IMG/VR virus record: IMGVR_UViG_3300011114_000478
Coordinates: 1-52,859 of that record
DNA from: a virus
Taxonomy: Duplodnaviria; Caudoviricetes
Direction: 5' to 3' (one strand)
Length of the DNA stretch: 52,859 bases
The stretch's first letter is position 1. Each line of letters begins with the position of its first letter. The position numbers and the translations under genes are program-made. Shown one piece after another: positions 1 to 52,859 of the stretch. The notes beneath the pieces were generated by a model. That model saw only the letters and a list, made by a program, of their open reading frames with translations, was not told where the DNA came from and made no database searches.

Positions 1-74
1 TTTACCTGAGCGAGTTTTTATTTTTCACAACGAAGGTAAACAAACTGAAATTATAGATAGCAAAGGATTGTTAA

Positions 75-1022
75 GTGGAATTATTGAATAGCGAGCAAAT
101 AGATTTCGAGCAGTATTTGAAACTCACTGAAGCTCACATGAAGGTAAAAGATGCGAGTGTGTTTATCGATGAGCTTAAAGAAGATTTAGCTAACCCTGTT
201 GTTGTAAAGAAGATTGGCATGCCGTGGTCAAAAACCATCAATGAGTTTGACTTTAGAAGCGGTGAGGTTACTTTGTATGCAGGAACTAACGGAAGTGGTA
301 AAAGTTTAATTACAGGTCAAATTGCATTAGGTTTAATTAAGCAGGATCAAAAGGTTTGTATTATGTCTTTTGAGATGAAACCAAAAAGAACTATCTTGCG
401 CATGACTAGACAGTTTAGTGGCACTGACTTAGATAATCCTTTTTTAAAAAATAAGTTAGAAGTAAATAACCAATATCTTGAAAGATTAAAAAAGTTTTCT
501 ACAGGAAAGCTATGGTTATACGATCAACAAGGAACAACAAACTCAAGTCAAGTCATATCTGTTGCAAGATATTGTGCGGTTGAATTAGGCATCACACATA
601 TTTTTGTTGATTCGCTTATGAAATGCGTTGCAGGGGAAGATGATTACAATTCACAAAAAGCTTTTGTGGATGAGCTGACAGCTTTGGCTCGCGATCACAA
701 TGTACACATACATTTAATTCATCATATTAGAAAATTAGTAAGCGAAGAGGTTAAGCCGAACAAAAATGACATCAAGGGCACGGGTGCAATTGCAGATCAA
801 GTAGACAATGTTTTGCTTATGTTTAGAAACAAAGCTAAAGAGCGTAAGATTCGAAATAATGAAACAGTTGAGAATACACCTGATGCAATGTTGATGTGTG
901 AGAAGCAACGTAACGGTGAAGTAGAAGATTGGTATAACTTGTATTATCACAAAGACAGCCAACAATTTATTGAAGATGAAAATGGCGTGCCCATGGCATT
1001 TGATACAGCAGGTGCGTTTTGA
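75..1022 (+). CDS. DnaB/SF4-type replicative helicase
   Basis: Walker A AGTNGSGKS, SFEM, Walker B-like IFVDSL, HHIRK, KGTGAIADQVDNV and CEKQRNGE motifs; GTG start. Confidence 0.9.
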   Translation: MELLNSEQIDFEQYLKLTEAHMKVKDASVFIDELKEDLANPVVVKKIGMPWSKTINEFDFRSGEVTLYAGTNGSGKSLITGQIALGLIKQDQKVCIMSFEMKPKRTILRMTRQFSGTDLDNPFLKNKLEVNNQYLERLKKFSTGKLWLYDQQGTTNSSQVISVARYCAVELGITHIFVDSLMKCVAGEDDYNSQKAFVDELTALARDHNVHIHLIHHIRKLVSEEVKPNKNDIKGTGAIADQVDNVLLMFRNKAKERKIRNNETVENTPDAMLMCEKQRNGEVEDWYNLYYHKDSQQFIEDENGVPMAFDTAGAF

Positions 1023-1279
1023 AAGAATATAACTTTGTAGTTGTGGAAGGCGTAAACAGAGGCAACGAAAGTAAAGAATTTCTTTATCAGTGTTTGGTTC
1101 GAGATGTGATTAAAAAAAGAATCGCTGATAGAGACAAAGCTTTTGAGTTCTTAGCTCGATGGGAAATACATCATAAGGATTCAAAATTAAGGGAAGATGT
1201 ACTTTATCAATGGCAAAGAGGTAACCGAGGGAAGGAGGATGAATGGTATGACCGAGATGATAAACAAACAATTGCTTGA
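1019..1279 (+). CDS. Hypothetical phage protein
   Basis: ORF overlapping the helicase stop by 4 nt (TTG start). Confidence 0.6.
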   Translation: MKEYNFVVVEGVNRGNESKEFLYQCLVRDVIKKRIADRDKAFEFLARWEIHHKDSKLREDVLYQWQRGNRGKEDEWYDRDDKQTIA

Positions 1280-1529
1280 TGCACTAGAGGCAATGTGTGA
1301 GTTATACGTTCCTGAAGACGAAAGTCTTGAGAACGACGCAGTAGCAGGATACGCGATGAATATTTTAGAAACAGCTAAAAAGATTGAAGCTGAGTATAAA
1401 AACAAACCGCTACCTGAAGACGATGTATGGATGTTGGCACAGGATATTAATCCTCATGACCCAATGTATCCAATACATTTTGCAAGAGCAGTTGAACGTA
1501 AACACGGCATAGGAGCTGATAATGGCTGA
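1248..1529 (+). CDS. Hypothetical phage protein
   Basis: AGGAGG at 1233-1238 favours ATG 1248 over the track start 1197. Confidence 0.6.
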   Translation: MTEMINKQLLDALEAMCELYVPEDESLENDAVAGYAMNILETAKKIEAEYKNKPLPEDDVWMLAQDINPHDPMYPIHFARAVERKHGIGADNG

Positions 1530-1782
1530 AGAAGAAAAGAAAGAACCCAAGCTTGTCTTTGATGAGAACACTAAAACATTTTCGTTTGAAAAAGATACGA
1601 TCACTGTTGAAGAACACAATCAAGAGATGCTTAAAACAATGGAAGAGTTTGCTGAGGTGCTAGAGCTTTCTATTTTAAGAGAGCGTGATGCATGCGCTAA
1701 GGTTGCACTCGAACTTAAAAGCGAAGAGATTGCTAAAGCGATTCGTGAGCGCGTACCTGCACAAAGTACGGCGGTGCATTGA
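1522..1782 (+). CDS. Hypothetical phage protein
   Basis: AGGAG upstream; ERDACAK..AIRER motif typical of small phage ORFs. Confidence 0.7.
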   Translation: MAEEEKKEPKLVFDENTKTFSFEKDTITVEEHNQEMLKTMEEFAEVLELSILRERDACAKVALELKSEEIAKAIRERVPAQSTAVH

Positions 1783-2126
1783 TGGAATTAATTCTGCCAT
1801 TCCCGCCGTCAGTTAATACTTATTGGAGAAATTTTCAAGGGCGCATGCTCATATCTAAAAAAGGAAGGGAGTATAGAAAAGCCGTGGCAGACGAAATTAT
1901 TTTACAAAAAGGCAATAAGCATTTAAAAGGCAAAATCAAAATGACCATAGAAGCGTGGAGACCTGACAATCGAAAGCGTGACTTGGATAATTTATTAAAA
2001 GCTCCACTCGATGCATTAACGCATGCGGGTGTGTATGAAGACGACCAATTGATTGTCGATTTAAGAATTTTTTGGGCAGAGGATCAAGCGGGTAAATTAA
2101 AAGTGAAAATTGAGGAGATAGAGTAA
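1782..2126 (+). CDS. rusA: RusA-family Holliday junction resolvase
   Basis: LPFPPSVNTYWR, RKRDLDNLLK..LDAL, EDDQLI motifs. Confidence 0.93.
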   Translation: MELILPFPPSVNTYWRNFQGRMLISKKGREYRKAVADEIILQKGNKHLKGKIKMTIEAWRPDNRKRDLDNLLKAPLDALTHAGVYEDDQLIVDLRIFWAEDQAGKLKVKIEEIE

Positions 2127-2455
2127 TGGAAATTAGAGATCCACACAAAGCGGTTGATTACATTTTAAAGAACGCTAAAGCACACGCTAAAGCAAAAGCT
2201 GAAAGAAATTATTTGGAAGAGTATCGCAAATCTTTAAAAGCAATGTTAATGAAACAATGTTTAGAAACAGCTATTGGCGCACAAGAAAGAGAGGCTTATG
2301 CGCATCCTGAATACAGAGCACTACTTGACGGTATTAAAGTTGCAATGGAAGAGGAAGAGAAGCTTCGATGGGATTTAATTGCCGCGCAAGCAGCGATTGA
2401 TATTTGGAGAACCGAACAATCTAATTTAAGAGCTGAAGGAAAGATAACCATATAA
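2126..2455 (+). CDS. Helical hypothetical phage protein
   Basis: Coupled ORF (TAATG), GGAG RBS. Confidence 0.75.
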   Translation: MEIRDPHKAVDYILKNAKAHAKAKAERNYLEEYRKSLKAMLMKQCLETAIGAQEREAYAHPEYRALLDGIKVAMEEEEKLRWDLIAAQAAIDIWRTEQSNLRAEGKITI

Positions 2456-3876: not shown

Positions 3877-4011
3877 ATGACTCGATTAGAACTGATTGCA
3901 GAAATTTGCAAACGCATGGCGGACGATTTAAAAGAAGACAATGACCGCGCTGAAGAAAAAGAACAACAAAGAGAAGCGCAAAAGAAAATGGATGACGATG
4001 AGATTTATTGA
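3877..4011 (+). CDS. 44-aa charged hypothetical protein (not in ORF track)
   Basis: GGGAG RBS; MTRLELIAEICKRMADDLKED...DDEIY*. Confidence 0.6.
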   Translation: MTRLELIAEICKRMADDLKEDNDRAEEKEQQREAQKKMDDDEIY

Positions 4012-5077
4012 ACTGTTCGCAGGTATTGGTGGCTTTCGCTTAGGGTTGGAACGCGCAGGTCACCAATGCGTTTGGTCTAACGAGATCGAAGATAAAGCGC
4101 GTCGCATATACAAACACAATTTTAAGGACACACCCGATGGAAGAGACGTTAGAGATATTGAACCCGAAGAGATCCCCGATGCAGACCTCCTTGTTGGAGG
4201 ATTCCCATGTGCAACTTTCTCCGTTGCAGGTCGCCGTACAGGTTTCTCTACAGACGATACAAGAGGAACTCTCTTCTTTGAAATCTGCCGAATTGCTAAA
4301 GCAAAACGAATACCATATCTTTTCCTTGAGAACGTCAAAGGATTGCTTAATCACGACCATGGAAGAACTTTTGGAGTCATCCTCGCTACGTTGGATGAAC
4401 TTGGGTATGACGTACAATGGGAATGTGTTAACAGCAAGAATTTCGGAGTCCCGCAGAATCGGGAACGAGTATTTATTGTCGCAAATCTTAGAGACAGAAC
4501 CCGACCAAAAGTATTTCCTATCGGAGAGTGCTATGCAACGGATGGTGGATCGTGCGCAGAAACACAAGGAGAAGGGGAACGGGTTTCAACAAACTATTTA
4601 CCAACGCTCGACGCACACTACTATAAAGGCGGTGGAACTCGGGCAGTCATCGACGAATCAGCAGGACATGTTCGAACAACTCAATGGAGACGAACACACT
4701 TCCGAGACATAAAAGGGAACTACACACCAACGTTGACAGCTAACATGGGTACGGGTGGTAACAATGTACCTTACGTTGAAGTGAAAGCTGTACTTACTCC
4801 ACAGCGCGAAGAGAAAAGACAAAATGGTCGACGCATCAAAGAACACAATGAGCCGTCATTTACAATCACAGCACAAGACAGGCACGGAGTCATCGTAGGA
4901 CAGAAGTTAAGAAAGCTTACACCACTCGAATGCGAACGCTTGCAGTCATTGCCTGATAATTGGACGAAGTGGTATGACGATGGATCGCTCGTATCTGATA
5001 ATCAGCGCTATGAGCGTTGCGGTAGAGCTGTGACGATTAATGTTATTCACGAAATAGGAAAGAGGTTACCACTATGA
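3998..5077 (+). CDS. Cytosine-C5 DNA methyltransferase family enzyme, probable DNA carboxymethyltransferase
   Basis: Motifs I FAGIGG, IV GGFPC, VI ENV, VIII QNRER, IX RKLTPLECERLQ; motif X is GRAV (Arg codon 5024-5026); likely start ATG 3998. Confidence 0.93.
   Translation: MRFIELFAGIGGFRLGLERAGHQCVWSNEIEDKARRIYKHNFKDTPDGRDVRDIEPEEIPDADLLVGGFPCATFSVAGRRTGFSTDDTRGTLFFEICRIAKAKRIPYLFLENVKGLLNHDHGRTFGVILATLDELGYDVQWECVNSKNFGVPQNRERVFIVANLRDRTRPKVFPIGECYATDGGSCAETQGEGERVSTNYLPTLDAHYYKGGGTRAVIDESAGHVRTTQWRRTHFRDIKGNYTPTLTANMGTGGNNVPYVEVKAVLTPQREEKRQNGRRIKEHNEPSFTITAQDRHGVIVGQKLRKLTPLECERLQSLPDNWTKWYDDGSLVSDNQRYERCGRAVTINVIHEIGKRLPL
4137..4712 (+). CDS. Alternative-frame ORF inside the methyltransferase, M.EcoHK31I beta-polypeptide-like
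   Basis: 191-codon +1 frame containing SSLRWMNLGM...LLSQILETEPDQKYFLSE...RA; true start uncertain. Confidence 0.6.
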   Translation: MEETLEILNPKRSPMQTSLLEDSHVQLSPLQVAVQVSLQTIQEELSSLKSAELLKQNEYHIFSLRTSKDCLITTMEELLESSSLRWMNLGMTYNGNVLTARISESRRIGNEYLLSQILETEPDQKYFLSESAMQRMVDRAQKHKEKGNGFQQTIYQRSTHTTIKAVELGQSSTNQQDMFEQLNGDEHTSET

Positions 5078-5715
5078 AGTCATGGAGTTTTGAATCAAGA
5101 GAAGTTGCAGACAAGTTTGATAAGCATGTAAGGGAACAGCTCCCATGGTATGACATGATTACAGACGCGGTTGTTTATATCGCGCGAAACTATTTGACTG
5201 AAGGTAATCGTATTGTTGACATCGGCGCATCGACAGGAAACCTATCACGCAAACTTTTACCACTTGCGAATGAGCGCAAAGGTAAAGTGTTAGCAATAGA
5301 AAAAAGTATGCCTATGATTTGCAAGATGGATGGCATGGAAGACGTAGGCGTGATCCATGGTGACGTGACTGAGATCGATATACCTGAAGCGCAAGTCTAC
5401 ATTTTATTTTTGACGATGATGTTTATACCCGTCGACAAAAGACAAAAGTTACTCGACACACTTCAAGACAAAGTGAAGGTGGGTGGATGTGTGATCATTG
5501 TTGATAAGATATGTGATCACAGTGGATACTTCTCAACGGTCATGAAGCGATTGACATGGCATTGGAAGATACAGCAAGGCGCGGAAGCTGAAGACATTAT
5601 CAATAAAGAGATGTCCCTTGCAGGCGTACAGATCCCGCTCGATAATTATTTTGTTGAGGATGCAAAACAATTTTTTAGGATGGGTGAGTTTGCAGGTTGG
5701 GTGATTGAATATTAA
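5074..5715 (+). CDS. cmoA: CmoA-like class I SAM-dependent enzyme (carboxy-SAM synthase homolog)
   Basis: WSF..VA..FD.HVREQLPWY, DIGASTG, GD, LTMMF, GG.VIIVDK, WK..QG.....I..K..SL.GV; ATGA-coupled to the methyltransferase. Confidence 0.8.
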   Translation: MKSWSFESREVADKFDKHVREQLPWYDMITDAVVYIARNYLTEGNRIVDIGASTGNLSRKLLPLANERKGKVLAIEKSMPMICKMDGMEDVGVIHGDVTEIDIPEAQVYILFLTMMFIPVDKRQKLLDTLQDKVKVGGCVIIVDKICDHSGYFSTVMKRLTWHWKIQQGAEAEDIINKEMSLAGVQIPLDNYFVEDAKQFFRMGEFAGWVIEY

Positions 5716-10293: not shown

Positions 10294-11734
10294 CGTTGTT
10301 GAGCTTCTTAAAGACAAAGAAGTCGAAGCGCAGTTTAAATCGCTTCCTATTGCTAAACAGATAGCGATAGCGTGGCGCATGAAGTGGTTAACGCAAGCGC
10401 ATGATCACCAAATATTGCCACACGGTGATTGGGCGATATGGTTGCTATTAGGTGGTCGAGGTGCGGGGAAGACTAGAACGTCTGCTGAGCAGATAGGATG
10501 GTGGGCTTGGGAACAGCCTAACACACGATGGCTAGTAGCCGCGCCGACAGCCATGGATGTACGCGGTACATGTATTGAAGGTGAATCAGGATTGCTTAAC
10601 GTGATACCTGAGATCCTTATTGCAGACTATAACAAGTCATTGCTCGAGATCAAGCTGACGAACGGATCACTGATCAAAGGCATATCAGCGTCAGAACCTG
10701 ATCGCTTCCGCGGTGGACAATACCACGGCGCATGGCTAGACGAGTTAGCGGCTTGGGATTACTTACAAGAAGCATGGGACATGATTATGTTCTCAGTGCG
10801 TTTAGGTAAAGAGACAAGGATCATCGCATCAACGACACCACGTCCTAAAGACTTGATCGTTGAGTTAGTAGGTCGAGCAGATGATGGATCAGGTGAGGTC
10901 GTCATGTCAACCGCGTCAACGTACGCGAACATAGACAACTTAGCGCCAAGCTTTCAACAGCAGATCTTGCAGTACGAAGGAACGAAGCTCGGACGCCAAG
11001 AGATCTATGCCGAACTGATTGACCCTGAAGAGGGTGGCATTGTTAAAAGAGATATGTTTAAGTTATGGGATGCGCGTAAGCCGTTCCCTAAGTTTGAATA
11101 CATCATACAGAGTTACGATTGCGCATACACAGAGAAGACGATCAATGACCCGACAGCGTGCTTAGTCTTCGGATTGTTTAAGCCAACAGACGGGCCCATG
11201 TCAGTGATGCTGATAGACGCATGGCAAGAACGCATGCAGTATCCTGATCTAAGACGAAAGGTTAGAGACGAATATGAAGTTAGTTATGGTGCGGATAGCG
11301 AGTCCGACACAGGAGAGTTTGTCAAAGGTAAGCGAGTTGATCTCATACTTGTCGAAGATAAGGCGAGTGGAATCAGTCTCATACAAGATATGCAACGGGC
11401 ACATTTACCTGTGCGAGCTTACAATCCTGGTCGAGCCGACAAAGTGCAACGACTTTCCATTGTCGCAAACATTATCGCTCATGGAAGAGTGTGGATTCCC
11501 GAATCGTCAGTACGTCGAGGATATGTGCGTGATTGGGCTGAGGGCTTCGTATCACAGATTTGCTCATTTCCTGAAGCTACGCATGACGACTATGTGGACG
11601 CATGTACGCAAGCGCTTCGGTATCTAAGAGACGCAGGCATGTTAGAGATTGATCCGAGACCTTATGACCCGTCAGAGGATTATGCAGACGCACACGGTGG
11701 ATACACACAACGTGTTAACCCGTACGCAGTATGA
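10286..11734 (+). CDS. terL: Terminase large subunit
   Basis: Walker A GGRGAGKT, Walker B WLDE, STTP, nuclease SYDCA and HDDYVDA. Confidence 0.96.
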   Translation: MTDVVELLKDKEVEAQFKSLPIAKQIAIAWRMKWLTQAHDHQILPHGDWAIWLLLGGRGAGKTRTSAEQIGWWAWEQPNTRWLVAAPTAMDVRGTCIEGESGLLNVIPEILIADYNKSLLEIKLTNGSLIKGISASEPDRFRGGQYHGAWLDELAAWDYLQEAWDMIMFSVRLGKETRIIASTTPRPKDLIVELVGRADDGSGEVVMSTASTYANIDNLAPSFQQQILQYEGTKLGRQEIYAELIDPEEGGIVKRDMFKLWDARKPFPKFEYIIQSYDCAYTEKTINDPTACLVFGLFKPTDGPMSVMLIDAWQERMQYPDLRRKVRDEYEVSYGADSESDTGEFVKGKRVDLILVEDKASGISLIQDMQRAHLPVRAYNPGRADKVQRLSIVANIIAHGRVWIPESSVRRGYVRDWAEGFVSQICSFPEATHDDYVDACTQALRYLRDAGMLEIDPRPYDPSEDYADAHGGYTQRVNPYAV

Positions 11735-11931
11735 CAACATTTTATATTGCCAAGAGAAGTCCCGTTGGTCATCAGCTTTTATTAAGGCGATGGATGCAAA
11801 TAAGAAAGTCTTATAAGCATGTAAGACGAGATATAGAAACAAAAAGGTATAGACGCCAATGGTTTTGGAACGCAGACAGATGGGATCAAAGACATGGCGA
11901 AAATAGCAACACCGTGCAAACAGATATGTGA
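11731..11931 (+). CDS. Small basic hypothetical protein
   Basis: ATGA overlap with terL. Confidence 0.5.
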   Translation: MTTFYIAKRSPVGHQLLLRRWMQIRKSYKHVRRDIETKRYRRQWFWNADRWDQRHGENSNTVQTDM

Positions 11932-12076
11932 ACTAGACGAAAAGTTATACATATGTAAAACATGTAAGCGCACTGAAGACGAGATAGCAAGTTGGTTAGA
12001 TTACACACCAAGCGAACGCAAAGCTGTAATGAAACGCATCAAGGAACGAGATGGGCGTAGCAAAAAAAATAATTGA
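11894..12076 (+). CDS. DUF1289-family Cys4 protein
   Basis: TPC..IC.LD....C..C.RT.DEI..W......ER..V. Confidence 0.8.
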   Translation: MAKIATPCKQICELDEKLYICKTCKRTEDEIASWLDYTPSERKAVMKRIKERDGRSKKNN

Positions 12077-18237: not shown

Positions 18238-18239
18238 TT

Positions 18240-23829: not shown

Positions 23830-23832
23830 CTA

Positions 23833-32902: not shown

Positions 32903-32912
32903 TAATCTGTAA

Positions 32913-35132: not shown

Positions 35133-35144
35133 AGGAATAGTTTT

Positions 35145-36467: not shown

Positions 36468-36475
36468 GGGTAGTT

Positions 36476-37111
36476 ATGACGACAGCAGTCGCGATGACCT
36501 ACGATAGTTTGGTCGAAAATATTCAGTCTTATTTAGAGCGTACGGATCAAGCAACTATTGACAAGATCCCGCTTTTTATTATGCTTGCAGAGCAAGTTAT
36601 TGCGTCTGAAATTAAGTTTCTAGGCAACCTTAATGTTGCTAATTCTACCTTTGTAGCGGGTGCAAACACCATACAAAAGCCTGCGCGTTGGCACAAAACT
36701 GTATCAATGAACATTACTGTAGCAGGTGAACGTCAACCTGTTCTATTACGCAAATACGAATACCTAAGAGAATATTGGCCTGATGACACACAAACAGATG
36801 TGCCTAAATTCTATTGCGATTACAACTATGATAATTGGTTAGTCGCACCAACACCTGATAGTAACTATAGCTTTGAAGTCTTGTACTACGAACGCGTACA
36901 GCCATTAGATTCTACAAACCAAACTAATTGGTTTACTATCTATGCACCACAAGCATTGCTTTATGGTTCGCTCCTACAAGCTATGCCTTTCCTAAAAAAT
37001 GACGAGCGTCTTCCTATGTGGCAATCACAATACACAGCCATTATGAATACACTTAAAACTGAAAACACACAACGAATTGGAGACAGACAGGCAACTGTTC
37101 TTGATACTTAA
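36476..37111 (+). CDS. Probable tail tubular/adaptor protein
   Basis: TY..L...I..YLER, P.FI.LAE, APTPD, LLYGSL..A..FLK. Confidence 0.7.
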   Translation: MTTAVAMTYDSLVENIQSYLERTDQATIDKIPLFIMLAEQVIASEIKFLGNLNVANSTFVAGANTIQKPARWHKTVSMNITVAGERQPVLLRKYEYLREYWPDDTQTDVPKFYCDYNYDNWLVAPTPDSNYSFEVLYYERVQPLDSTNQTNWFTIYAPQALLYGSLLQAMPFLKNDERLPMWQSQYTAIMNTLKTENTQRIGDRQATVLDT

Positions 37112-37113
37112 AC

Positions 37114-40583: not shown

Positions 40584-40837
40584 TGACTATATCATTGGTT
40601 TACGATCCGAGGTATCATACATTTCAATCATGGGCAAGTCTCATGTGCGAAGCTTACTCAGGTCAACAATTACAAATACCATCTGACAACGAAGACGAAT
40701 GGAAGTCATGGGCGGTAGGATTAAATGCAATTGATATATTTACAAACAATGCTATTCCTGATCCTTATCAATTTGAAAATTGGCAAGATTGGGCATCAGC
40801 AGTTGTCAACACAGTAAATCAAAGGACAGAACAATAA
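40583..40837 (+). CDS. Trp-rich hypothetical protein
   Basis: Coupled ORF. Confidence 0.7.
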   Translation: MTISLVYDPRYHTFQSWASLMCEAYSGQQLQIPSDNEDEWKSWAVGLNAIDIFTNNAIPDPYQFENWQDWASAVVNTVNQRTEQ

Positions 40838-41319
40838 TGCCAAAAAGCGCAAAACCAAGAAAAGAATATAATCCAAATTCTAAAATGCCACCTCCAAAGA
40901 TTGAGGAAAAGCTAACTCCACAAGAGATTGTGAAGCGTAGTCTTGAGCGCATGAATCCAAGTGCTGATTGGGAAAATGTATATTCACATGTATACGCGGC
41001 TATTAAATCTAATAAATTTAGAGCGCTTCGACATGGGGAAACTATTTTATTTTTTCAAGTACAAAGTCCTGTAGCGTCTCAAGCTCATTTGTTTTCAGCC
41101 GACCCACAAGATAAATTTTTAGAAGCATTGCGAGAGTTTGGTAAAGCATTAAAAATAAGCGGATATAAAAAACTTACAGGCATTGTAAGAAATGCGTCTT
41201 TATTGCGATTAATTAGAAAAGCAAATTCTATTAAGTTTGAAGTAAACGATTCTCCTATTAGGGCTTATGGTGATTCAGGAGAAATTCTTGGATATAAATT
41301 AGAGATTGGAATTAAATAA
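40837..41319 (+). CDS. Hypothetical protein
   Basis: TAATG-coupled start at 40837 with AAGGA RBS. Confidence 0.7.
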   Translation: MPKSAKPRKEYNPNSKMPPPKIEEKLTPQEIVKRSLERMNPSADWENVYSHVYAAIKSNKFRALRHGETILFFQVQSPVASQAHLFSADPQDKFLEALREFGKALKISGYKKLTGIVRNASLLRLIRKANSIKFEVNDSPIRAYGDSGEILGYKLEIGIK

Positions 41320-43172
41320 TGTGTGGATTTGTAGAAGACATAGTTGGTGGTGTAATTGATGTTATAGGCTCAGTCGCAGAGTTTGTGGTTGACAATGCAT
41401 TTCCTATTATTTCAACTGTAGCATTAAACTATTTTGCACCTGGTCTTGGAGATTTTTTTTCAATTAGTCAGACGGCGGTAAAAGCCATTGGGGGAGCGGC
41501 TATTTCTGCTATGAACGGTGGAAGTATAGCTGACATAGCAACCGCAGGGTTAACTCCATTCTTGCCATCCATCGGAAAATCATTAGGTATTAATCTTGAT
41601 CCAACAGGATTTATTAGCTCTTCAATTGCTGACGTTTTAGGTGACAACGTCGTTTCTAATGTTATATCTAACGCAGTTGGTTCTGCCACAATGGCGGGTT
41701 TAACGGCGGCTGTAACAGGCGGGGATATTTTAAAAGCAGCAGGTATGGCAGGTTTTAGTAGCGCTGTAGGTACTACCTTATCAAAAACATGGGACTCTCT
41801 TAAAGAGTATGCTCCTAAACTAGCACAAACAGAAACTGAAATACAAACAAAATATAACAGAGTACAAGACTCTCAAAGCTTTATAGATCAAGTAAGAAAA
41901 CAACAAGGTATTGTTAATGATCTAGCAGAAGAAATAAACGCTCCTAGCACAAAATACCAACAACTAAAATCAGATTATGATACAAAGTTAGCTCAATATA
42001 ACTCTGCAAAAGACGCTCGAGATGTCACTACAGCAAACAGTATAGCAAAAGAACTTAACGAAAATGTAATACCTACAATTAATGAATTTGTAAACAACTA
42101 TGGGGATTTTTCAGATACATATGTTGATTCAACTTTAATGCCACAATATGAACAAGCTAAATCATATTTGGATAGTTTGATTAATAATAATCAGGGATTG
42201 ATTGATAATTATATCAGCGATATAACAAGCTTAGATACGCTTACAAAGCAATACGATACATTCACAAATAAAATTCAAGCTGATTACTCTAATTTCCAAA
42301 TGGCTGATGCATTATCAAAAGGTGATTACACAAATGCATCTAAATACTACACAGATCTAAATAATTATAATCAAGCTATATTAAAAGTAGAGCCAAATAC
42401 AACAGTTGCTACACCTAATTTAACAGCACAACAAAATACATTCTTGCAAGATTTTTCAAAGGCTACAGATCAGGCGGTTAAAGATCAATTAACTTCGCAA
42501 GCTTCACAACTTTTTGCTGACTATAAAGCTCCTATTACAACAGACACAACGGTTCCTACTACACCTACAACACCTACAACACCAACAACAGGTACGGGAA
42601 CAGGAACATCAACCAATCCATACGAAAATTTACCAAAATTACCTGAAGATGGCATAGGTCAACCTACACCACCTTCCCCCACTACAGGCACAGGAACCAC
42701 GGGAGCAACTACACCTAACATAGGATCAAATTTAACTAACTACCTTACAAATGTTGGAAGCAATCTATTGGGTAATATTACAAAAGGTGTAGTGACCAAT
42801 CAAGTTGTAAACGCAATTTTAGGCAACGATCCTCAAAGACCTTCTTTACCTACTAAACCAAGACCACCATCAAAAGTAGACGTCAGCACATTAAAGCCGT
42901 TTACAGGTGGCTTGCCAAGTAATGTAACATCTAGTGTCACTCCTATTAAAAAAGACCCAAGTACCTTAACACCTTTTACAGGCGCTTTACCTACTACAGG
43001 CGGAACAACAACTACAACACCAACAACACCAACAACACCAAATACTACTACACAAACCCCTACAGGTGGTTTACAATCAAATCAAACTCAAACCCCTCCA
43101 ACTAAAGTGGATGTCAGCAAATTAACGCCCGTTACTGATATGAATTGGCTTAAAAGCTTGGGTATAGCATAA
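41319..43172 (+). CDS. Probable internal virion/ejection protein
   Basis: Gly/Ala hydrophobic N-terminus, coiled coil, Pro/Thr-rich tail. Confidence 0.65.
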   Translation: MCGFVEDIVGGVIDVIGSVAEFVVDNAFPIISTVALNYFAPGLGDFFSISQTAVKAIGGAAISAMNGGSIADIATAGLTPFLPSIGKSLGINLDPTGFISSSIADVLGDNVVSNVISNAVGSATMAGLTAAVTGGDILKAAGMAGFSSAVGTTLSKTWDSLKEYAPKLAQTETEIQTKYNRVQDSQSFIDQVRKQQGIVNDLAEEINAPSTKYQQLKSDYDTKLAQYNSAKDARDVTTANSIAKELNENVIPTINEFVNNYGDFSDTYVDSTLMPQYEQAKSYLDSLINNNQGLIDNYISDITSLDTLTKQYDTFTNKIQADYSNFQMADALSKGDYTNASKYYTDLNNYNQAILKVEPNTTVATPNLTAQQNTFLQDFSKATDQAVKDQLTSQASQLFADYKAPITTDTTVPTTPTTPTTPTTGTGTGTSTNPYENLPKLPEDGIGQPTPPSPTTGTGTTGATTPNIGSNLTNYLTNVGSNLLGNITKGVVTNQVVNAILGNDPQRPSLPTKPRPPSKVDVSTLKPFTGGLPSNVTSSVTPIKKDPSTLTPFTGALPTTGGTTTTTPTTPTTPNTTTQTPTGGLQSNQTQTPPTKVDVSKLTPVTDMNWLKSLGIA

Positions 43173-43181
43173 GGATAAATT

Positions 43182-45932
43182 ATGGCACTTCCACAATCAG
43201 TCGACCCAACAAGCCTTAACATTAGCGGAAAGCCTGCAATAGCTACAGCGCCAACAACCACAACATCTGTGGGTGCTACAGGCATGCCAATGCCTACTAT
43301 AGCTATGGAAAAGAACGAGGTTCCATTAGGTGCAGGAGCTCTTTTAGGTTATGCGCTAGGTAACTTAATGGGTAATCGAGGTACTGCTTTAACAGGTACG
43401 CCTACGGGACAGACTCCATCAGGACAAACACCTTCAGGTCAAACTCCTTCAGGATCAAAGCCAACAGGATCAACACCAACAGGAAACATAGGAAGTGTAA
43501 ATAGTATAAAATTTCCCGCAGGTACTACACAAGATCAAATTGACGCAATGATTAATCCTTTGACAGGATTGCCATACGGAAAAACAAATGGTCAGTCTAA
43601 CTATGTAATATCAGGCGTCAACATGCAAAACGGTGAGGTTGTTGCATTACCAAACGATAAAATTGGCGGAACAAATCTAGGAACAAATACAGGTAATTTT
43701 GGTTTTGAGGCAGGCACAGGTACAGGCGGTACAACAGGCGGTACTACACAAACAGGTAATCAATACTTTCAAGATTCAAGCGGTAATGTTTATGATGCGG
43801 ATGGCACATTAATCTATTACAATCCAAGTAGTGTTATCTCAGGTGGCACTATGGATGGCGGTGGTTATGATCCAAACGCAGACACAGGATCTGACGCAGG
43901 TCAATTCTTTCAAAGTGATGCAGGTGACATTTACGATTACGCAGGTAATCTTGTTTTAGAGTACGGCAATGGATATTACTACGAACCTGACACAGGAAAT
44001 TATTACGATTCAAACTTTGATGTCGTAGGTGACGACTTTAGCTTCTTCGAAGACTTTATGGGTTTACCTGCTTTTGACTCAAGTATGTATGGTGATCTAG
44101 GTGATTATTTTGATTACGGCAACTACACATCAGGTAGCACAACATATATAAAAGACGGAGGTTCTGTGAAGGGCGGATTAGCAACACCATTATTTAAAAA
44201 AGGCGGATCAGTGCCTAGATTTGCAGAGGGATCTACAGGTGGTATTGATCTTTCTACATACACTAACACAGGTGATCCTCTTGCAAACACAAGCAATCTT
44301 TTAGGTGTAGATAACACAGTAAATTCTAGCAATCTTCTTGGTGTTAATACGCCTGTGGCTACAGCAACAAATTTAACTAACCCTGTAACACAAGACACAT
44401 CACAATCAGGCATAGTAAATACAATTAGTAATTTACTAGGTAATAAAGGCGTATCAGGTGCTTTACTTGGAACACTTATTGCACAATTACTTAACTCTAC
44501 AGAACAACCTGTAAACAAAGGTGTCGACATGACAGCGTTAGGTACATTAAAACCACGCACAACACCAACAGGTCCTGCTCGATTTGTTCCTTACTCAGAA
44601 TACGGTACACCAACTACACCATATGATTACTCACAATTGTATGCAAACTTAGGTGTATCACCTTTTGGCGCAGGTGCGGGAGCGCTCTCTCCAAGTGCAA
44701 CTCCAACCACTCCTACATCTGCCCAACCTGTAACAACACCAACAACACCTACAGGTGGATTGCCTGCTATTACAGCACCAACAACACCGACAACACCTAC
44801 GCAAACAACGCAACAATATTTCCAAGATGCTGACGGCAATATTTATAATGCAAACGGTGATTTAGTTTACGACACAACCACAGGTACAACAACAGCAGTA
44901 GCACAACAAACTGTAGCACCTAGTGGTACAACACAAGCTAGTGTAGCGCCTATGAGCGGTTTAGCTGTGACTACACCTGAAGCTTCATCATCTTATTATT
45001 CTTACGGTTCTGATGTAAATCCCGCGCAAGTATTAAGCTCTAAAAAAGGTGGAGCAATTAAAAAATTTGCTGACGGTGGATTATCAGATTTAGCAGTGAC
45101 ATCTTTATATGACGCAACTAATCCTGATTATGTAAGCGCTCATGAAGCTTTAATAGCGCAACCAAGCATGGCAACAATGAATAATCAATTTGGTACTGTA
45201 GGTTATAACATGGCTTACAACAGTCCTGAAGCTAATGCGTTCTATGATAAATATGCTGTAAGGAATGATGACGGTTCTACATACATAAGCCCTGAAGGTT
45301 TTGAATACTTATATTCAATAGATCCAAGAGCGTATGCAACTGATTCTATCGTACAAGATATGCCTGTAGACGTACCACTAGCTATGGGAAATGCATATGA
45401 TGACTCATCAGACTTTCCAATTAGAACAATGGCAGGTGAAACACCTTTACCTTATGAAAGAGTAACAACTTCAGCACCAACTGATTTTGCTCCTCCTTCA
45501 TTCTCTGATTCACCAACATTTAGATATAGTGGCGCACGCAATCCGTTACTATCAGGTTTAAGCATGACACCAACGCAACCATACAGACTTGCTCAAGGTG
45601 GTTCGCCACATGGAAACGCAAATATACCTGTAACAGAAGGTAATAATCCTAATGTGCCTATAGTACAAGGTAGACAAGATTACAGAAAAGGCGCTTATGT
45701 ACAAGGTGCGGGTGATGGTCAATCTGACGACATTCCTGCAATGCTTGCTGACGGTGAATACGTCATCGATGCAGAAACAGTAGCACAATTAGGCAACGGC
45801 TCAAACAAAGCAGGTGCTAAAATGTTAGACGAATTTAGAGAAAATATTCGCGCACATAAACGTAGCGCACCCACACATAAAATACCGCCAAAAAGCAAAT
45901 CTGCATTGGCATATCTTAAAGGAGCAAAATAA
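43182..45932 (+). CDS. Probable internal virion/ejection protein, low complexity
   Basis: Several xxxGG motifs, YFQD..G..Y repeats, C-terminal GDGQSDDIPAMLADGEYVI. Confidence 0.65.
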   Translation: MALPQSVDPTSLNISGKPAIATAPTTTTSVGATGMPMPTIAMEKNEVPLGAGALLGYALGNLMGNRGTALTGTPTGQTPSGQTPSGQTPSGSKPTGSTPTGNIGSVNSIKFPAGTTQDQIDAMINPLTGLPYGKTNGQSNYVISGVNMQNGEVVALPNDKIGGTNLGTNTGNFGFEAGTGTGGTTGGTTQTGNQYFQDSSGNVYDADGTLIYYNPSSVISGGTMDGGGYDPNADTGSDAGQFFQSDAGDIYDYAGNLVLEYGNGYYYEPDTGNYYDSNFDVVGDDFSFFEDFMGLPAFDSSMYGDLGDYFDYGNYTSGSTTYIKDGGSVKGGLATPLFKKGGSVPRFAEGSTGGIDLSTYTNTGDPLANTSNLLGVDNTVNSSNLLGVNTPVATATNLTNPVTQDTSQSGIVNTISNLLGNKGVSGALLGTLIAQLLNSTEQPVNKGVDMTALGTLKPRTTPTGPARFVPYSEYGTPTTPYDYSQLYANLGVSPFGAGAGALSPSATPTTPTSAQPVTTPTTPTGGLPAITAPTTPTTPTQTTQQYFQDADGNIYNANGDLVYDTTTGTTTAVAQQTVAPSGTTQASVAPMSGLAVTTPEASSSYYSYGSDVNPAQVLSSKKGGAIKKFADGGLSDLAVTSLYDATNPDYVSAHEALIAQPSMATMNNQFGTVGYNMAYNSPEANAFYDKYAVRNDDGSTYISPEGFEYLYSIDPRAYATDSIVQDMPVDVPLAMGNAYDDSSDFPIRTMAGETPLPYERVTTSAPTDFAPPSFSDSPTFRYSGARNPLLSGLSMTPTQPYRLAQGGSPHGNANIPVTEGNNPNVPIVQGRQDYRKGAYVQGAGDGQSDDIPAMLADGEYVIDAETVAQLGNGSNKAGAKMLDEFRENIRAHKRSAPTHKIPPKSKSALAYLKGAK

Positions 45933-46984
45933 TGGCTGATATATTTCAAGGCGCGCCGTTACCCGCAGTAACCACTACTAAACAAGATCAGACGGTCTTA
46001 CCTGAGTTTTATACTAACTATTTACAAGACATTGCAAATATTGGTACAGGCGCTGTTCAGCAAGGTGGTGTAGCAGGATTCTCTCCTTTACAACAACAAG
46101 CATTTCAAATGGCACCTAATGTTGCATTTAGTGGCGCACAAACAGCAGGTGACGCGGCTTCTCTATTAGGCGCGGCGGGTACAACAGCAGCTCCGACTAT
46201 GGTTGGTGCATATATGAATCCATACACTCGCAATGTTGTGGATGAAATGTCACGCTTACAACAACAAAATATTCAACGTAGTGTTTTACCTGCGTTAAGA
46301 GGTGCAGGCGTAGGTTCAGGCAGTTTTGGATCAACTCGACAAGCTAACGTAACAGGTCAAGCACTAGCTGATATGCAACGTAATCTATTAGGCAAACAAT
46401 ACGAAGCATTATATTCAGGTTATGGTGACGCGATGAAAGCCGCGCAAACCGACTTAAACCGTCAAATGCAAGCAGGTCAAGGCTTAGGTAATGTAGCTCA
46501 ACAACAATACAGCATTGGTACAGGCGGTCTTAAAACACTTGAAGAGTTAGGCGGTCAACAACAAGCGCTAGGTCAAAAACAACTAGACTATCCAATGATT
46601 CAAGCACAAAACCTTGCTAAACTATTTACAGGGTTAAGTCTTCCTACAGGTACAACAACACAAACAACAGGACCAGGGCAAGCAGGTCAGTATTCATTAA
46701 GCCCGTTATCACAAATTAGTGGCTTACTCACGGGTCTTGGTGCATTTATGGGTACACCTTCAGGTACAACAGGAACTACAGGAACAACACAACAACAATC
46801 AGGTTTAGCTAGTATTTTAGGCTTACCGCAAGCGGCTTTTGATCAACTTATGAGTCTTGGTAGAAGTATTGGTTTACCTCTTGCTGAAGGTGGTACTGTA
46901 GGTTACGCAAAAGGTGGCAAAGTAAAACCTGTACCTGTGAACTTTCAAAACTATTTAAAACATAAAGCAAAAAGGAATTCATAA
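45932..46984 (+). CDS. Probable DNA pilot/ejection protein
   Basis: VAGFSPLQQQA, YMNPY..NV, G.FG.TRQ; Gln/Gly-rich. Confidence 0.7.
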   Translation: MADIFQGAPLPAVTTTKQDQTVLPEFYTNYLQDIANIGTGAVQQGGVAGFSPLQQQAFQMAPNVAFSGAQTAGDAASLLGAAGTTAAPTMVGAYMNPYTRNVVDEMSRLQQQNIQRSVLPALRGAGVGSGSFGSTRQANVTGQALADMQRNLLGKQYEALYSGYGDAMKAAQTDLNRQMQAGQGLGNVAQQQYSIGTGGLKTLEELGGQQQALGQKQLDYPMIQAQNLAKLFTGLSLPTGTTTQTTGPGQAGQYSLSPLSQISGLLTGLGAFMGTPSGTTGTTGTTQQQSGLASILGLPQAAFDQLMSLGRSIGLPLAEGGTVGYAKGGKVKPVPVNFQNYLKHKAKRNS

Positions 46985-48609
46985 TGGCTGACGATATTCA
47001 AGGCGGGTTAAACGCAGTCACTCAACCTGAAGAACCTATTACACCTGCTGTACAAGAAACTTCAGAAGAAGCTCTTTACAAAGGTGACGCTACTGAGCGA
47101 TTAAGAAAGCAAAGACTTGCTTATGATCAGCATCTTCAAAAGATGATTGAAAGCTTCAAAGGTAGAACAGCTAATCTAGGATATGATCCTAAAATGTTAG
47201 CGCTATCTAAAGGTTTCCTAACGCCTGGTAAGACAGGTAACTTCTTTGAGAGCTTAGGTAGTGCTTTTGAAGGTTACGGTCAAGCCGCGCAAGAAGAACA
47301 AAAATTAAAACTAGAAGATGAATTGACTAGAGAAAAGCTTTTAGGTTTGCAACTCGGTCAAACAGAAAAAGACTATGCGCTTGAAAAAGAATTAAAAGGC
47401 AAACAGTATTTACAAGATATAGTATCAGGCAAAATTGGCAGAACAGGCGCTCCAACAACTGTAGCTCGTACAGAAAAGTTATCTGTACCTGACGCATATA
47501 GCCTCATTGAAGGAGCACAAGACCCAAGAAGTGGCGTAAGAATTACTAAAGAAATGATTGTAGCCGCTCCGACAAAAGAGACACAAGCTATTTTAGAAAA
47601 GCTTTATGACAATCAACAAAAAGAACTTGAGCTTGAACAAAAAGAATTTGGCTCAACAAAAATAACTTTACCTGTCATTGGTGAACCAACAGAAAACATT
47701 ACCATCAAACAAGCTAAAGAAATTGAAAAGTTAGATAGAGCAACAAGAGATATGCCTATTGAAGAGCGTACAGCTATATTTAATCAGTATTACCAAGACA
47801 AAGGTATTTTAGGTAGAAGACCTGTCGTATCCCCAACAGGAAAAACAACTGAGCAATTTGAAACTCCACAACAAAGAGCAACAAGAGTTGAAGGCGAAAA
47901 AGAAACAGTCAAAGAAACTGCAAAAGCAAACGTAAAAGATATTGAGTTTCTTGAAACAAGGCGTGATAGCGCTGTCGATCAAATTAATGATGCTAAAGCT
48001 GTTTACACGATTGCAACTAACCCACAAACTAAAAATGCGTTTGGTATCTTAGCCAAGCCAGGCGTTGCAACAGCATTCGGCGAATTAATTCGTGAACCAC
48101 TTAAATTTGGTGACATCAGCGTAGGTGTTTCTAATATTGAAAACATTATTCGTAAGGCAGGTGGTACGCAAGAAGAGATTAACGCTGCGGCTATTGTTGC
48201 TAGAAACATAGCTAAACTTGAATTAGGTTTCAGTCAAGCGTTTAAAGGTCAAGGTCAAGTATCTGATAACGAACGACTCATTGTGCGTAACGTAGGTCCA
48301 CAAATTTCAGACAATCCAAAAGTAGCCGCGCTCAAAGCAGAAAGTATTATTGCACGCGCTGAGTTCGATAATGCTATGGCAACCAAATTTGCACAGTGGC
48401 AAGAGTCTCATCCAAATGGTACTGTAAGACAATTCAAGGGATCGCCTGAATATAATACAATTAAGGTAGGTTACGATAATAAGCTTGGTAATCTATTATC
48501 TAAATACGGTATGACGCCTGCACGAGTAGGAACTGAAAAGTCAACATCAGAACCTAAAAAAGGCGGAAGTCTTTGGGAAGCTATACAAAGAGCTAAGGAA
48601 AGTGAATAA
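46984..48609 (+). CDS. Probable ejection protein
   Basis: Helical; GQGQVSD.ER motif; position in the ejection cluster. Confidence 0.65.
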   Translation: MADDIQGGLNAVTQPEEPITPAVQETSEEALYKGDATERLRKQRLAYDQHLQKMIESFKGRTANLGYDPKMLALSKGFLTPGKTGNFFESLGSAFEGYGQAAQEEQKLKLEDELTREKLLGLQLGQTEKDYALEKELKGKQYLQDIVSGKIGRTGAPTTVARTEKLSVPDAYSLIEGAQDPRSGVRITKEMIVAAPTKETQAILEKLYDNQQKELELEQKEFGSTKITLPVIGEPTENITIKQAKEIEKLDRATRDMPIEERTAIFNQYYQDKGILGRRPVVSPTGKTTEQFETPQQRATRVEGEKETVKETAKANVKDIEFLETRRDSAVDQINDAKAVYTIATNPQTKNAFGILAKPGVATAFGELIREPLKFGDISVGVSNIENIIRKAGGTQEEINAAAIVARNIAKLELGFSQAFKGQGQVSDNERLIVRNVGPQISDNPKVAALKAESIIARAEFDNAMATKFAQWQESHPNGTVRQFKGSPEYNTIKVGYDNKLGNLLSKYGMTPARVGTEKSTSEPKKGGSLWEAIQRAKESE

Positions 48610-51262: not shown

Positions 51263-51490
51263 TTACTTACGATCCTCCAACACTCTTGCTACGTCTTTGT
51301 TGAGTGATCGTACAATCTCCACGCATCGGGCATGCTCCTTCAATCGAACGCTGTCAGAAATCACTTGTTCAATCTTGCGAGCATATTCAATGATGTCTAA
51401 TGGCTCACCTTGTGGATCGGTGTATAGCCCATTAGGATCATTGTTGTCACAGTAAAAAAATATTTGTTTAATTAAGTCTTCGCTAATCAT
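51263..51490 (-). CDS. Hypothetical protein
   Basis: AGGAG RBS, ATGA overlap. Confidence 0.7.
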   Translation of the reverse strand: MISEDLIKQIFFYCDNNDPNGLYTDPQGEPLDIIEYARKIEQVISDSVRLKEHARCVEIVRSLNKDVARVLEDRK

Positions 51491-51783
51491 CTTAACTCCT
51501 GTAGATTTGTATCCTTTAAAAATCTTTTAAGGGATATTCTTATTTTTGCAACAGTAGTTGCTCCTATATTTGGAGTTTTTAATAATGTATTGTCTGTTGC
51601 ATTCATTAAGTCATAAATGGTATTAATTTCAGAAAAATTTTTTAATTCAAATTCAACCATTTTGCTTAAATTTAAAACGTCAATTGGAACTGATCCTAAA
51701 TATTTTTTTTGAGTATAATCTTTATACCACTTTTCAAAATCTAAAAACTCTTCTTTGTTTTTTAATTCTATAAGAATTTTCAT
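51487..51783 (-). CDS. RNA polymerase alpha C-terminal domain-like protein
   Basis: PIDVLNLS.....L....INTIYDL......LLKTPNIG......I...L resembles alpha-CTD. Confidence 0.7.
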   Translation of the reverse strand: MKILIELKNKEEFLDFEKWYKDYTQKKYLGSVPIDVLNLSKMVEFELKNFSEINTIYDLMNATDNTLLKTPNIGATTVAKIRISLKRFLKDTNLQELR

Positions 51784-51799
51784 ACGTTCATCCTTTCGA

Positions 51800-52606
51800 T
51801 TATTTGTATTTATTTTTTAATTGCCAAAATTTTAATAACGAGCAAAACATCTCAAAGCCTCTTTGTAAATCTTCTTCCGACCATTCGATTATTTTGCACA
51901 AACCTGCTTCCGTGCGAGAGACAAAGATGTTGGCACAACGAGCTTTGGGTATACCTAGCCCTACTCGATATGCCGATAATTGCATTAAGTGATCATCATA
52001 GGCTAACACATCCTTAGGATCTGTAAAGTCTTTAGTCTTAATATCAACCACAATACCATTGCCTACAGGGTCATTTGTTGCGTGTAAGTCACATTTTCCT
52101 GCAAAACCAAGCTCATGACCAAAAGAACGCTCAGCAATCCATCCAATTCTTCCATATTGCTCTTCTAACGCACGAACGCATCCTTGGACATGATCTTGAT
52201 ACTTATCATGCGATCTGCCCTCATAGAACGATTCTATAGCTGTATGAATCTCTGTACCAAGATCAGCGGCGTCTCGTCCTTGTTGTTTGGAATCTTGAAT
52301 AATGCGGTCAATATAATCTTGCTCTGACTCACCTTCACGTTTTGTGGATGTAAGAGCCGCCATTAAAACTTGTGTTTGCATCCATGCAACCAATGCAGGT
52401 TTAGCTGACACACCTAAGATAGTAGTAACCGAAGGTATATAGTTATGTTCTCTTGCGTCTCTTAATGTAGTATTGCGCTCCTTACCATTCTTACCTACGA
52501 TTGTATACTGTGGTATACCGTCACGCGTGTACCAATGATTTGATTCAGACGCTCGAACCTTTGGTGGTTCTGACGCATAAAATAAACTTTTGCTCTGCTC
52601 GGTCAT
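51800..52606 (-). CDS. PD-(D/E)XK exonuclease (phage recombination type)
   Basis: PSVTTIL, GT.IH..E, FAGKCD, VVDIKT, QLSAY. Confidence 0.85.
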   Translation of the reverse strand: MTEQSKSLFYASEPPKVRASESNHWYTRDGIPQYTIVGKNGKERNTTLRDAREHNYIPSVTTILGVSAKPALVAWMQTQVLMAALTSTKREGESEQDYIDRIIQDSKQQGRDAADLGTEIHTAIESFYEGRSHDKYQDHVQGCVRALEEQYGRIGWIAERSFGHELGFAGKCDLHATNDPVGNGIVVDIKTKDFTDPKDVLAYDDHLMQLSAYRVGLGIPKARCANIFVSRTEAGLCKIIEWSEEDLQRGFEMFCSLLKFWQLKNKYK

Positions 52607-52608
52607 AA

Positions 52609-52821
52609 TTATCTTTCGGTTAAAAATCTGTTAAGTTCTTTTGAGTACCATTCTATCTTGCCTGAATCTTCGCTTGATTCACCTTTAAGACCTATGCGAC
52701 TTGTGTATTTAAAAATATTGCCACGCAAGTAACCAACATACTCCTCAGGCGACAGCTTGGCTCGAATATACTCAATCGTCTCTATACCTCCTTGGGTATA
52801 ATGAGGTGGGTGATTGATCAT
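52609..52821 (-). CDS. DUF3310 (SaV/T7 gp1.7-like) protein, 5' end probably outside the window
   Basis: INHP.HY..GGIE.I, G...GN..KY..R...KG...D..K..WY; frame stays open to the window edge. Confidence 0.85.
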   Translation of the reverse strand: MINHPPHYTQGGIETIEYIRAKLSPEEYVGYLRGNIFKYTSRIGLKGESSEDSGKIEWYSKELNRFLTER

Positions 52822-52859
52822 GTCAGGTTTTGGCTTGTCTTTATTTTCTTTATCTATTT

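Follow-up and report, generated by a model that had tools for sequence, protein, structure and literature searches.

The virus record IMGVR_UViG_3300011114_000478 (Caudoviricetes) was analysed over its whole length of 52,859 bases, hereafter the window. Estimated to be 94% complete and with a G+C content of 39.7%, it is an almost full-length genome from a freshwater phage that has not been cultured. Three four-base words, CCGG, CCAG and CTGG, are almost missing from it except where they form part of CCWGG (W, A or T). The same genome carries two overlapping genes, one related to the cytosine C5-methyltransferase homologue CmoX and the other to the carboxy-S-adenosylmethionine (carboxy-SAM) synthase CmoA. 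The relation between this purge, the surviving CCWGG sites and the gene pair is the subject of this report. The features concerned are:

1..52859, both strands, three reading frames: genome-wide purge of CCGG, CCAG and CTGG, measured by Markov counts and codon shuffle.
11426..48062, plus strand: 26 CCWGG sites, in-frame Pro-Gly, starting at 11426, 12210, 12276, 16069, 17005, 17500, 18661, 20283, 21154, 21593, 21782, 22085, 23971, 24079, 24334, 25697, 26895, 27705, 29364, 31888, 38385, 38733, 41439, 46673, 47224 and 48058.
31918..31922, plus strand: GCTGG, the sole avoidable exception, read as GCT-GGT (Ala-Gly) in open reading frame (ORF) 30661-32073.
3941..5077, plus strand: CmoX-like cytosine-C5 transferase (PF00145, 1.2e-80; alternative starts 3992 and 3998).
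5074..5715, plus strand: CmoA-like carboxy-SAM synthase, with a 4-base overlap with the CmoX-like gene (TIGR00740, 4GEK).

The plus strand holds 0 CCGG, 12 CCAG and 15 CTGG, against second-order Markov expectations of 42, 100 and 127, respectively. All 12 CCAG are CCAGG and 14 of the 15 CTGG are CCTGG, so that CCAG[ACT] does not occur in the whole window and [AGT]CTGG occurs once. On both strands together, CCAG/CTGG numbered 27 (237.8 expected) and CCGG 0 (86.1 expected). For a second null, synonymous codons were shuffled inside each gene (100 shuffles over 78 crude ORFs), so that protein sequences and the codon usage of the phage stayed as they are; it is conservative because that usage is itself already distorted. 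Shuffled genes contained 44.6±4.8 CCGG (0 observed) and 227±12.7 sites of the classes CCAGH and DCTGG (H, not G; D, not C), of which 1 was observed. Outside Pro-Gly, none of the three words was found in any reading frame save the one GCTGG, whose ORF had no PHROG family match. As CCAG and CTGG are emptied to a similar level on the plus strand, the constraint must act on double-stranded DNA and not on RNA. The original prediction had described this near-absence outside CCWGG, about two dozen CCWGG sites and the lone GCTGG at 31918-31922 by eye. Both nulls bear out the first, the sites number 26, and the GCTGG was confirmed as the only site outside CCWGG.

The codon choices that keep the words out are close to absolute. 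Thr, Ser and Ala codons preceding Gly end in A in 352 cases, in G in 35, in T in 1 and in C in none. Pro before GTN, GCN or GAN is spelled CCT (168) or CCC (37), never CCA or CCG. All 95 C- or T-ending codons before Trp end in T, and all 48 Gln codons that follow a C-ending codon are CAA. These tallies bear out exactly the earlier remark that codon choice bends around the motif in Thr/Ser/Ala-Gly, Pro-Ala-type and pyrimidine-ending-codon-Trp contexts. CCTG/CAGG, noted before as common, is the most over-represented 4-mer of all (575 versus 324.5 expected). CCCG and CTAG had been called common as well. This stands in terms of bare numbers, with 51 CCCG (52 CGGG) and 85 CTAG sites, but CTAG lies below expectation at an observed/expected ratio (o/e) of 0.64. 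The degenerate palindrome CYRG was rejected as a single avoided site, CTAG being retained 85 times.

Every one of the 26 CCWGG sites, 13 of them CCAGG and 13 CCTGG, is in frame as CCW-GGN and encodes Pro-Gly. CCN-GGN necessarily gives CCNGG, and the CCW form is always used because CCC-GG and CCG-GG contain CCGG. Pro-Gly is the one dipeptide unable to avoid the motif set; all other CCAG, CTGG and CCGG have a synonymous escape. Codon shuffling gave 32±3.1 CCWGG sites with a minimum of 25, and the observed 26 is therefore the coding floor. The rule is thus an absence of CCRG/CYGG unless the code forces it, and CCWGG is not a spared class.

The dipeptide itself has been thinned. Pro-Gly occurs 26 times in the window's proteins against 61.7 from amino-acid expectation (o/e 0.42). 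Without the gene pair the ratio was 0.93 and 0.63 in two complete relatives (G001 and G002) and 0.92, 0.61, 1.0 and 0.98 in other groups. In aligned orthologues from two complete relatives, Pro-Gly was present only in the relative at 22+10 positions and only in the window at 2+1 (binomial 4e-7); five other dipeptides in the same alignments, taken as a control, gave 201:224. The Pro of a lost Pro-Gly was replaced mostly by Ala or Ser. Loss by amino-acid replacement indicates that the leftover CCWGG sites are still costly. One earlier suggestion was restriction avoidance with CCWGG rescued by methylation. Its first half, avoidance through codon choice, is supported; CCWGG as a rescued class is not, given that all 26 sites are Pro-Gly and that Pro-Gly has been reduced. 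Modification rescue is not needed to explain CCWGG survival. The same coding-limit logic applies to GGNCC and Gly-Pro: GGNCC is at its coding floor (26 sites versus 44.9±4.1 in the codon shuffle), 25 of the 26 are in-frame Gly-Pro, and Gly-Pro has an o/e of 0.40 in the window.

How the sites disappeared was traced by alignment with two undepleted relatives. CTGG in the relatives had become CAGG in the window at 48/135 and 46/99 positions and TTGG at 25/135 and 16/99. CCAG had become CCTG at 26/90 and 28/57 positions, with C>T at its inner C in merely 4/90 and 3/57. The swaps CTGG>CAGG and CCAG>CCTG explain why CAGG/CCTG is the top enriched 4-mer. The sites were removed by selection among synonymous alternatives, not by mutation bias.

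The distribution of the purge was followed through a scan of IMG/VR with the large terminase subunit (TerL), which gave 538 relatives; the best 80 were kept, and motifs were counted in the 52 loci of at least 6 kb, the 28 shorter ones being left out. Seven of the 52 are purged (L003, L006, L007, L009, L011, L030 and L033), with 0-1 CCAGH+DCTGG sites against 27-72 expected from base composition, and each remaining locus has at least 12. Many low-G+C relatives have 0 CCGG with normal CCAG/CTGG, and many high-G+C relatives have 0-1 CCWGG with normal CCGG. Two complete relatives without the pair, which either lack any match to the window's C5 enzyme or have an unrelated one, illustrate the separation. 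G001, in which there is no C5-transferase match, has 0 CCGG, 380 CCAGH+DCTGG and 88 CCWGG; the values for G002 are 0, 453 and 50. A CCGG purge in pair-less genomes must be of long standing and cannot depend on the pair. Limited to one subclade, the CCAG/CTGG purge is common to the window and G005, which share ~82% nucleotide identity, and its retention across ~18% divergence points to continuing selection. Depletion is partial in G003 (CCAG o/e 0.49) and G004 (0.67), both with an excess of CAGG; in G003 this excess is 1.44, and 6 CCGG sites are present. Where the window has the gene pair, the corresponding G003 slot (L013:5382-6842) holds a 486-aa N6/N4 DNA methylase, and it looks as if modification cassettes have been swapped at one locus. 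The nearest named relative, MW202545.1 (L001+L002; 54.5% G+C), has a different purge in which CCAG is normal and CCWGG (1 vs 150), GCWGC (3 vs 152), GGWCC (0 vs 68) and many GC-rich 6-mers are missing. Its Pro-Gly is spelled CCSGG (S, C or G) in 51/51 cases.

Many further sites are purged from the window. GGCC occurs 11 times (52 expected), GCWGC 18 (63.5), GGTACC 1 (19), GGATCC 0 (14.5), AACGTT 2 (16), GATATC 0 (10.7), CTTAAG 0 (10), TCTAGA 0 (6.8) and TACGTA 0 (6.3). The asymmetric CCTC/GAGG is partly depleted (149 vs 237±12), and GCGC is in excess (152 vs 121±10). Observed over expected counts in the subclade and in G001, respectively, were 0/14.5 vs 2/10 for GGATCC, 0/10.7 vs 8/13 for GATATC and 2/8.7 vs 29/28 for CAGCTG. 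That the subclade has emptied GGCC, GCWGC and many 6-base palindromes kept by G001 points to one host or several with many restriction systems.

The gene pair was characterized by profile and structure matching. In the CmoX-like protein the catalytic Pro-Cys lies in GFPC (residues 87-90). Motif IV reads GFPCAT, not PCQ, and differs also from the SPPC motif used for CmoX calls in PMC12783734. In motif X the Arg of 'CGRAV' aligns with Asn304 of HhaI ('FGNSV') and corresponds to R350 of SpCmoX. The closest solved structure is M.HhaI (2.7e-52 over the catalytic part), and the SpCmoX structure 8YF3 is a weak match (2e-16). The Dcm subfamily model NF007772 is matched by residues 4-187 alone and scores 144.9 bits where its cut-off is 710, and by these profile scores the target-recognition region is judged not to be Dcm-like. 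A search of that region (residues 186-320) against 5.8 billion proteins returned 809 matches with no specificity in the source names. The best family for the CmoA-like protein is TIGR00740 CmoA (1.9e-19; 70.3 bits against a curated cut-off of 193.3 bits), and its best solved structures are E. coli CmoA 4GEK (8e-14), 4IWN and 1IM8. No Asn_synthase match, as would be given by a CmoY-like ligase, was found in the genome. Ahead of the methyltransferase core lies a Lys/Arg-rich N-terminal extension of 19 residues (3941-3997), which has a counterpart in the closest relatives (L098-L102, aligned from query residues 1-2 onward) but not in more distant ones.

In Yang et al. 2025 (PMC12783734), CmoX is described as a C5-methyltransferase homologue with an Asn>Arg change that makes 5-carboxymethylcytosine (5cxmC), and the CmoA of the Synechococcus phage S-B43 as making carboxy-SAM. 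Only ~75% of target sites are modified in S-B43, and the specificities of other CmoX enzymes are stated there as still to be determined. By analogy, the pair in the window most likely makes 5cxmC, and the Arg in motif X together with the CmoA-like partner predicts that the CmoX-like enzyme is not a plain methylase. Both traits are general in the family. A scan of IMG/VR with the CmoX-like protein gave 129 relatives, and among the best 80, at 57-99% identity, the motif X Arg (CGR) was present in 80/80 and GFPCAT in 79/80, the remaining one being truncated. A CmoA-like gene lies downstream at 79/80 loci; the remaining locus ends right after the CmoX-like gene. Two homologues from Firmicutes phages have canonical PCQ and GN(S/A)V and no annotated CmoA-like neighbour. 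A contig scan with the same protein returned 3 distant matches (43%, 37% and 25%, all in metagenome-assembled genomes), with no restriction-modification (R-M) operon and no clue to the host.

Two candidate targets of the enzyme were rejected. GCGC, the site suggested by the best solved match, M.HhaI, has an o/e of 0.89-1.01, but TGCGCA (1 vs 51) and GGCGCC (37 vs 99) are depleted in the 0.53-Mb X60 group. A GC-dinucleotide target as in S-B43 was set aside as pair-bearing groups avoid GGCC, GCWGC, AGCT and CAGCTG. In phages with a CmoX-like gene of 58-62% identity (L121-L123, L128, L132-L134 and L136-L177; 0.53 Mb pooled), 4-base palindromes are nearly gone: both-strand counts over expectation were 0/4164 for AGCT, 28/4946 for GATC, 52/1840 for ACGT, 36/2698 for GGCC and 28/2073 for CCGG. 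AT-only 6-mers are purged too. An unrelated pair of this kind was also recognized in the Moraxella phage Mcat8 (L183, KR093632.1), where two 'hypothetical' genes on the minus strand (23225-24932) encode a CmoX-like protein of the SPPC type, again with the motif X Arg, and a CmoA-like protein with 41% identity to that of the window. The Mcat8 genome contains CCGG once and CCWGG once, and GGCC, GCGC and GATC have been purged from it too.

The original prediction had proposed that the purged motif marks the target of the phage's own cytosine-modifying enzyme. Six pair loci are at least 90% identical in the enzyme, and all have 0 CCAGH+DCTGG; three of their contigs also appear among the TerL loci, as L003, L011 and L033. 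In the other 74 of the 80 pair loci (57-81% identity) these sites stand at 0.56-2.1 times the base-composition expectation, that is, normal or enriched. Among them is the 80%-identity group, in which the target-recognition region hardly differs from that of the window. As CCAG/CTGG is normal in 74/80 pair loci, the motif does not mark the enzyme's target in general, and the proposal fails in that form. The suggested comparison of relatives with and without the pair gave a divided answer: the pair-less G001 and G002 lack the CCAG/CTGG purge, in line with a link, but share the CCGG purge.

We consider it probable that the window records avoidance of several restriction enzymes at once, carried to the limit of the genetic code, with the CmoX/CmoA-like pair a separate device and not the cause of the CCAG/CTGG purge. 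Host restriction is most likely the agent. Selection would remove CCGG, CCAG and CTGG from double-stranded DNA wherever a synonymous codon permits. Pro-Gly, the sole place without a coding way out, would be left as CCWGG and then thinned by amino-acid replacement. Each leftover site lowers the chance of escape, which explains the gradient from synonymous options, used first, to Pro-Gly where the protein tolerates it. The pressure may come from a CCGG-type host enzyme, acting also on relatives without the pair, from an enzyme or system with an asymmetric 4-base CCAG/CTGG site, acting on this subclade only, and from some ten further specificities (GGCC, GCWGC, GGNCC, GGTACC, GGATCC, GATATC, CTTAAG and others). 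The gene pair would be a separate anti-restriction device, probably placing 5cxmC at another motif. The CCGG purge fits a common enzyme type. For CCAG, PMC10689673 gives a methyltransferase specific for this site, confirmed in H. pylori A45, as well as a methylation motif of the same sequence seen in T. phaeum, and CCAG is on that record a real R-M-type recognition site.

Several observations weigh against restriction avoidance with an unconnected gene pair. Within the TerL relatives purge and pair co-occur: 3/3 purged loci that cover the slot carry the pair, and the single half-depleted locus that covers it (L013/G003) has the N6/N4 methylase there instead. All four pair identity groups are purged of CCGG (0.00-0.21 of the Markov expectation) and of CCWGG (0.01-0.32), the CCWGG ratio of the window's own group being uninformative as CCAG is already purged there. 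Pro-Gly stands at 0.15-0.42 in these groups; pair-less groups show one purge or neither, with Pro-Gly at 0.61-1.0. No CCAG- or CCGG-cutting enzyme was seen, as the contig scan and the search of sequencing runs gave no host. Finally, the 26 CCAG-containing sites that are left would still be cut by a classical Type II enzyme, which favours some masking.

The alternative that survives best takes up these points as a two-tier defence. Host restriction would purge the genome, and the CmoX-like enzyme would mask the unrecodable Pro-Gly CCWGG sites by placing 5cxmC at the inner cytosine, whether of CCWGG or of CCNGG. The reason for the pair would then be that the code leaves Pro-Gly sites behind, and the proposal restates the earlier idea of rescue by modification. 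We hold this possible but rather unlikely. It accounts for the 26 sites that would otherwise be cut and for the fact that all four pair groups, unlike the pair-less ones, have purged both CCGG and CCWGG and brought Pro-Gly down to the limit set by coding. The type of recognition region also tracks the type of leftover: Pro-Gly is spelled CCWGG in 26/26, 32/33 and 95/109 cases in three groups that share the window's recognition-region type, and CCSGG in 57/59 in the group with a different region (X65). The incomplete modification given for S-B43 in PMC12783734 (~75%), if general, would keep up selection for fewer sites. Set against this, CCWGG and Pro-Gly are strongly selected against in every enzyme-bearing group (o/e 0.15-0.42), and the recognition region has no detectable Dcm likeness (145 bits against a cut-off of 710, over residues 4-187 only). 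The correlation of region with leftover draws on two types of region and cannot be separated from G+C content, and masking at CCWGG/CCNGG presupposes a putative specificity. The group data for a functional tie between enzyme and CCNGG, and with them the unrelated Mcat8 pair in a genome with a single CCGG and a single CCWGG, are suggestive but not decisive. We prefer heavy restriction pressure that selects both site loss and a modification system over an enzyme that masks Pro-Gly sites. The generalization that phages under CCGG plus CCWGG (or CCAG) restriction delete Pro-Gly and recruit a GFPCA-type CmoX with CmoA to mask the remainder is likewise tentative. If true, this would make the enzyme family specific for CCWGG or CCNGG and a 'last-mile' device dedicated to countering restriction.

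It is improbable that the purge is self-inflicted, with the CmoX-like enzyme modifying C in CCRG/CYGG and the modified sites being harmful. The harm might lie in cutting by a Type IV (MspJI/LpnPI-like) host nuclease or in blocked phage replication or transcription; in a variant, host DNA is the enzyme's intended substrate, and the phage genome is kept clear of its sites. LpnPI-type enzymes read C-mC-D-G. Purge and pair co-occur within the subclade, and the partial relaxation of the pair-less G003 (CCAG o/e 0.49, 6 CCGG), with CAGG at 1.44, resembles a fading footprint. Such an enzyme does not fit the normal or enriched CCAG/CTGG of the 74/80 homologous-pair loci, among them the 80%-identity group with its near-identical recognition region, nor the complete CCGG purge in G001, where there is no C5-transferase match. 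An enzyme that harms the phage through its sites should, moreover, simply be lost.

A translational or RNA-level effect, such as codon-pair bias or a sequence-specific RNase, would suit a pattern expressed via codon-pair choice. We give it very little credence as the sense strand is emptied of CCAG and of its complement CTGG alike, all three frames are affected, and the set contains the reverse complement of each of its motifs, as expected of sites read on double-stranded DNA. The original prediction's other proposal, that modified CCRG cytosines deaminate to T while Vsr-type repair restores CCWGG, matches the bare pattern and the presence of CTAG (85 sites) but is refuted: C>T at the inner C is rare (4/90 and 3/57), A<>T transversions at the middle bases and codon-specific synonymous swaps prevail, CTAG is not enriched (o/e 0.64), Vsr (PF03852) has 0 matches in the genome by a search that in a control found the family in 3/14 genomes, repair cannot account for 26/26 CCWGG being in-frame Pro-Gly, and 1 site left of ~227 is too complete for mutation bias.

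The purge resembles the palindrome avoidance of other phages in that sites are under-represented relative to composition through synonymous codons, relatives with different hosts differ, and many 4-6 base palindromes are purged in one genome. It departs from it in that the largest purge is of a non-palindromic 4-mer, CCAG/CTGG, together with CCGG, and in that it reaches the genetic-code limit and enters the proteins as Pro-Gly loss. With the H. pylori A45 methyltransferase it shares the asymmetric 4-base CCAG used by R-M-type enzymes; that organism is unrelated, and in PMC10689673 the methyltransferase alone is shown. Survival of CCWGG recalls Dcm/Vsr, but no Vsr match was found in the window, the recognition region is not Dcm-like, and Pro-Gly coding explains the survival. 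The likeness to CmoA-CmoX of S-B43, as given in PMC12783734, lies in a homologue of C5-methyltransferases that has Arg in place of HhaI Asn304, with a CmoA homologue beside it. The window differs in having GFPCAT where CmoX has SPPC, in its weak match to 8YF3 and in giving no match to a CmoY-like ligase. Since the window avoids GGCC, GCWGC and CAGCTG, an SpCmoX-like GC-dinucleotide target is unlikely.

Restriction avoidance and the CmoA/CmoX system (published 2025) are already known. New are the near-total purge of an asymmetric 4-mer, the tracing of its 'exception' to the genetic code, a loss of Pro-Gly that can be measured and, among the CmoX-like enzymes of freshwater phages, a large branch of the GFPCA type. 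A full-text literature search, in the one wording tried, gave no match for restriction-site avoidance combined with a dipeptide, and one for CCWGG/CCGG avoidance in bacteriophage gave, in the part of the literature covered, only a review of archaeal R-M systems. The reach of restriction pressure is considerable: ~270 sites of three 4-base words have been removed, only those unavoidable in the code survive, and the proteome has been reshaped, with Pro-Gly lost and Gly-Pro few. An apparently 'protected' 5-mer may thus be a coding residue, and Pro-Gly should be checked for CCNGG and Gly-Pro for GGNCC. The preferred reading predicts a host system with an unusual CCAG site. The GFPCA-type CmoX-like/CmoA-like pairs form a large freshwater family whose target is directly testable.

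A search of sequencing runs found near-identical sequence in freshwater, lake, drinking-water, sediment and viral metagenomes (8 studies); the sources were metagenomes only and named no host. In a megablast search with 10 kb, no match came from the cultured-phage collection. Among cultured and named phages, the record closest to the window, with 64% identity in the terminase, is that of an uncultured siphovirus from spring water. The remaining recognizable genes of the window are:

75-1022: DnaB-like helicase.
6935-7702, plus strand: ArdC-N-like protein (PF08401, 8.8e-11), an anti-restriction context near the CmoX/CmoA-like pair.
9445-11734: small and large terminase.
15706-18237: portal.
21182-22096: major head protein.
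36476-37111: SU10-type adaptor.
48612-49853: SLT transglycosylase.

Two paralogous genes for 2-oxoglutarate (2OG)-Fe(II) oxygenases (32913-33491 and 33973-34539) lie close together among the late genes, and an ORF on the minus strand (51800-52606) has a weak match to PD-(D/E)XK nucleases (5.4e-5).

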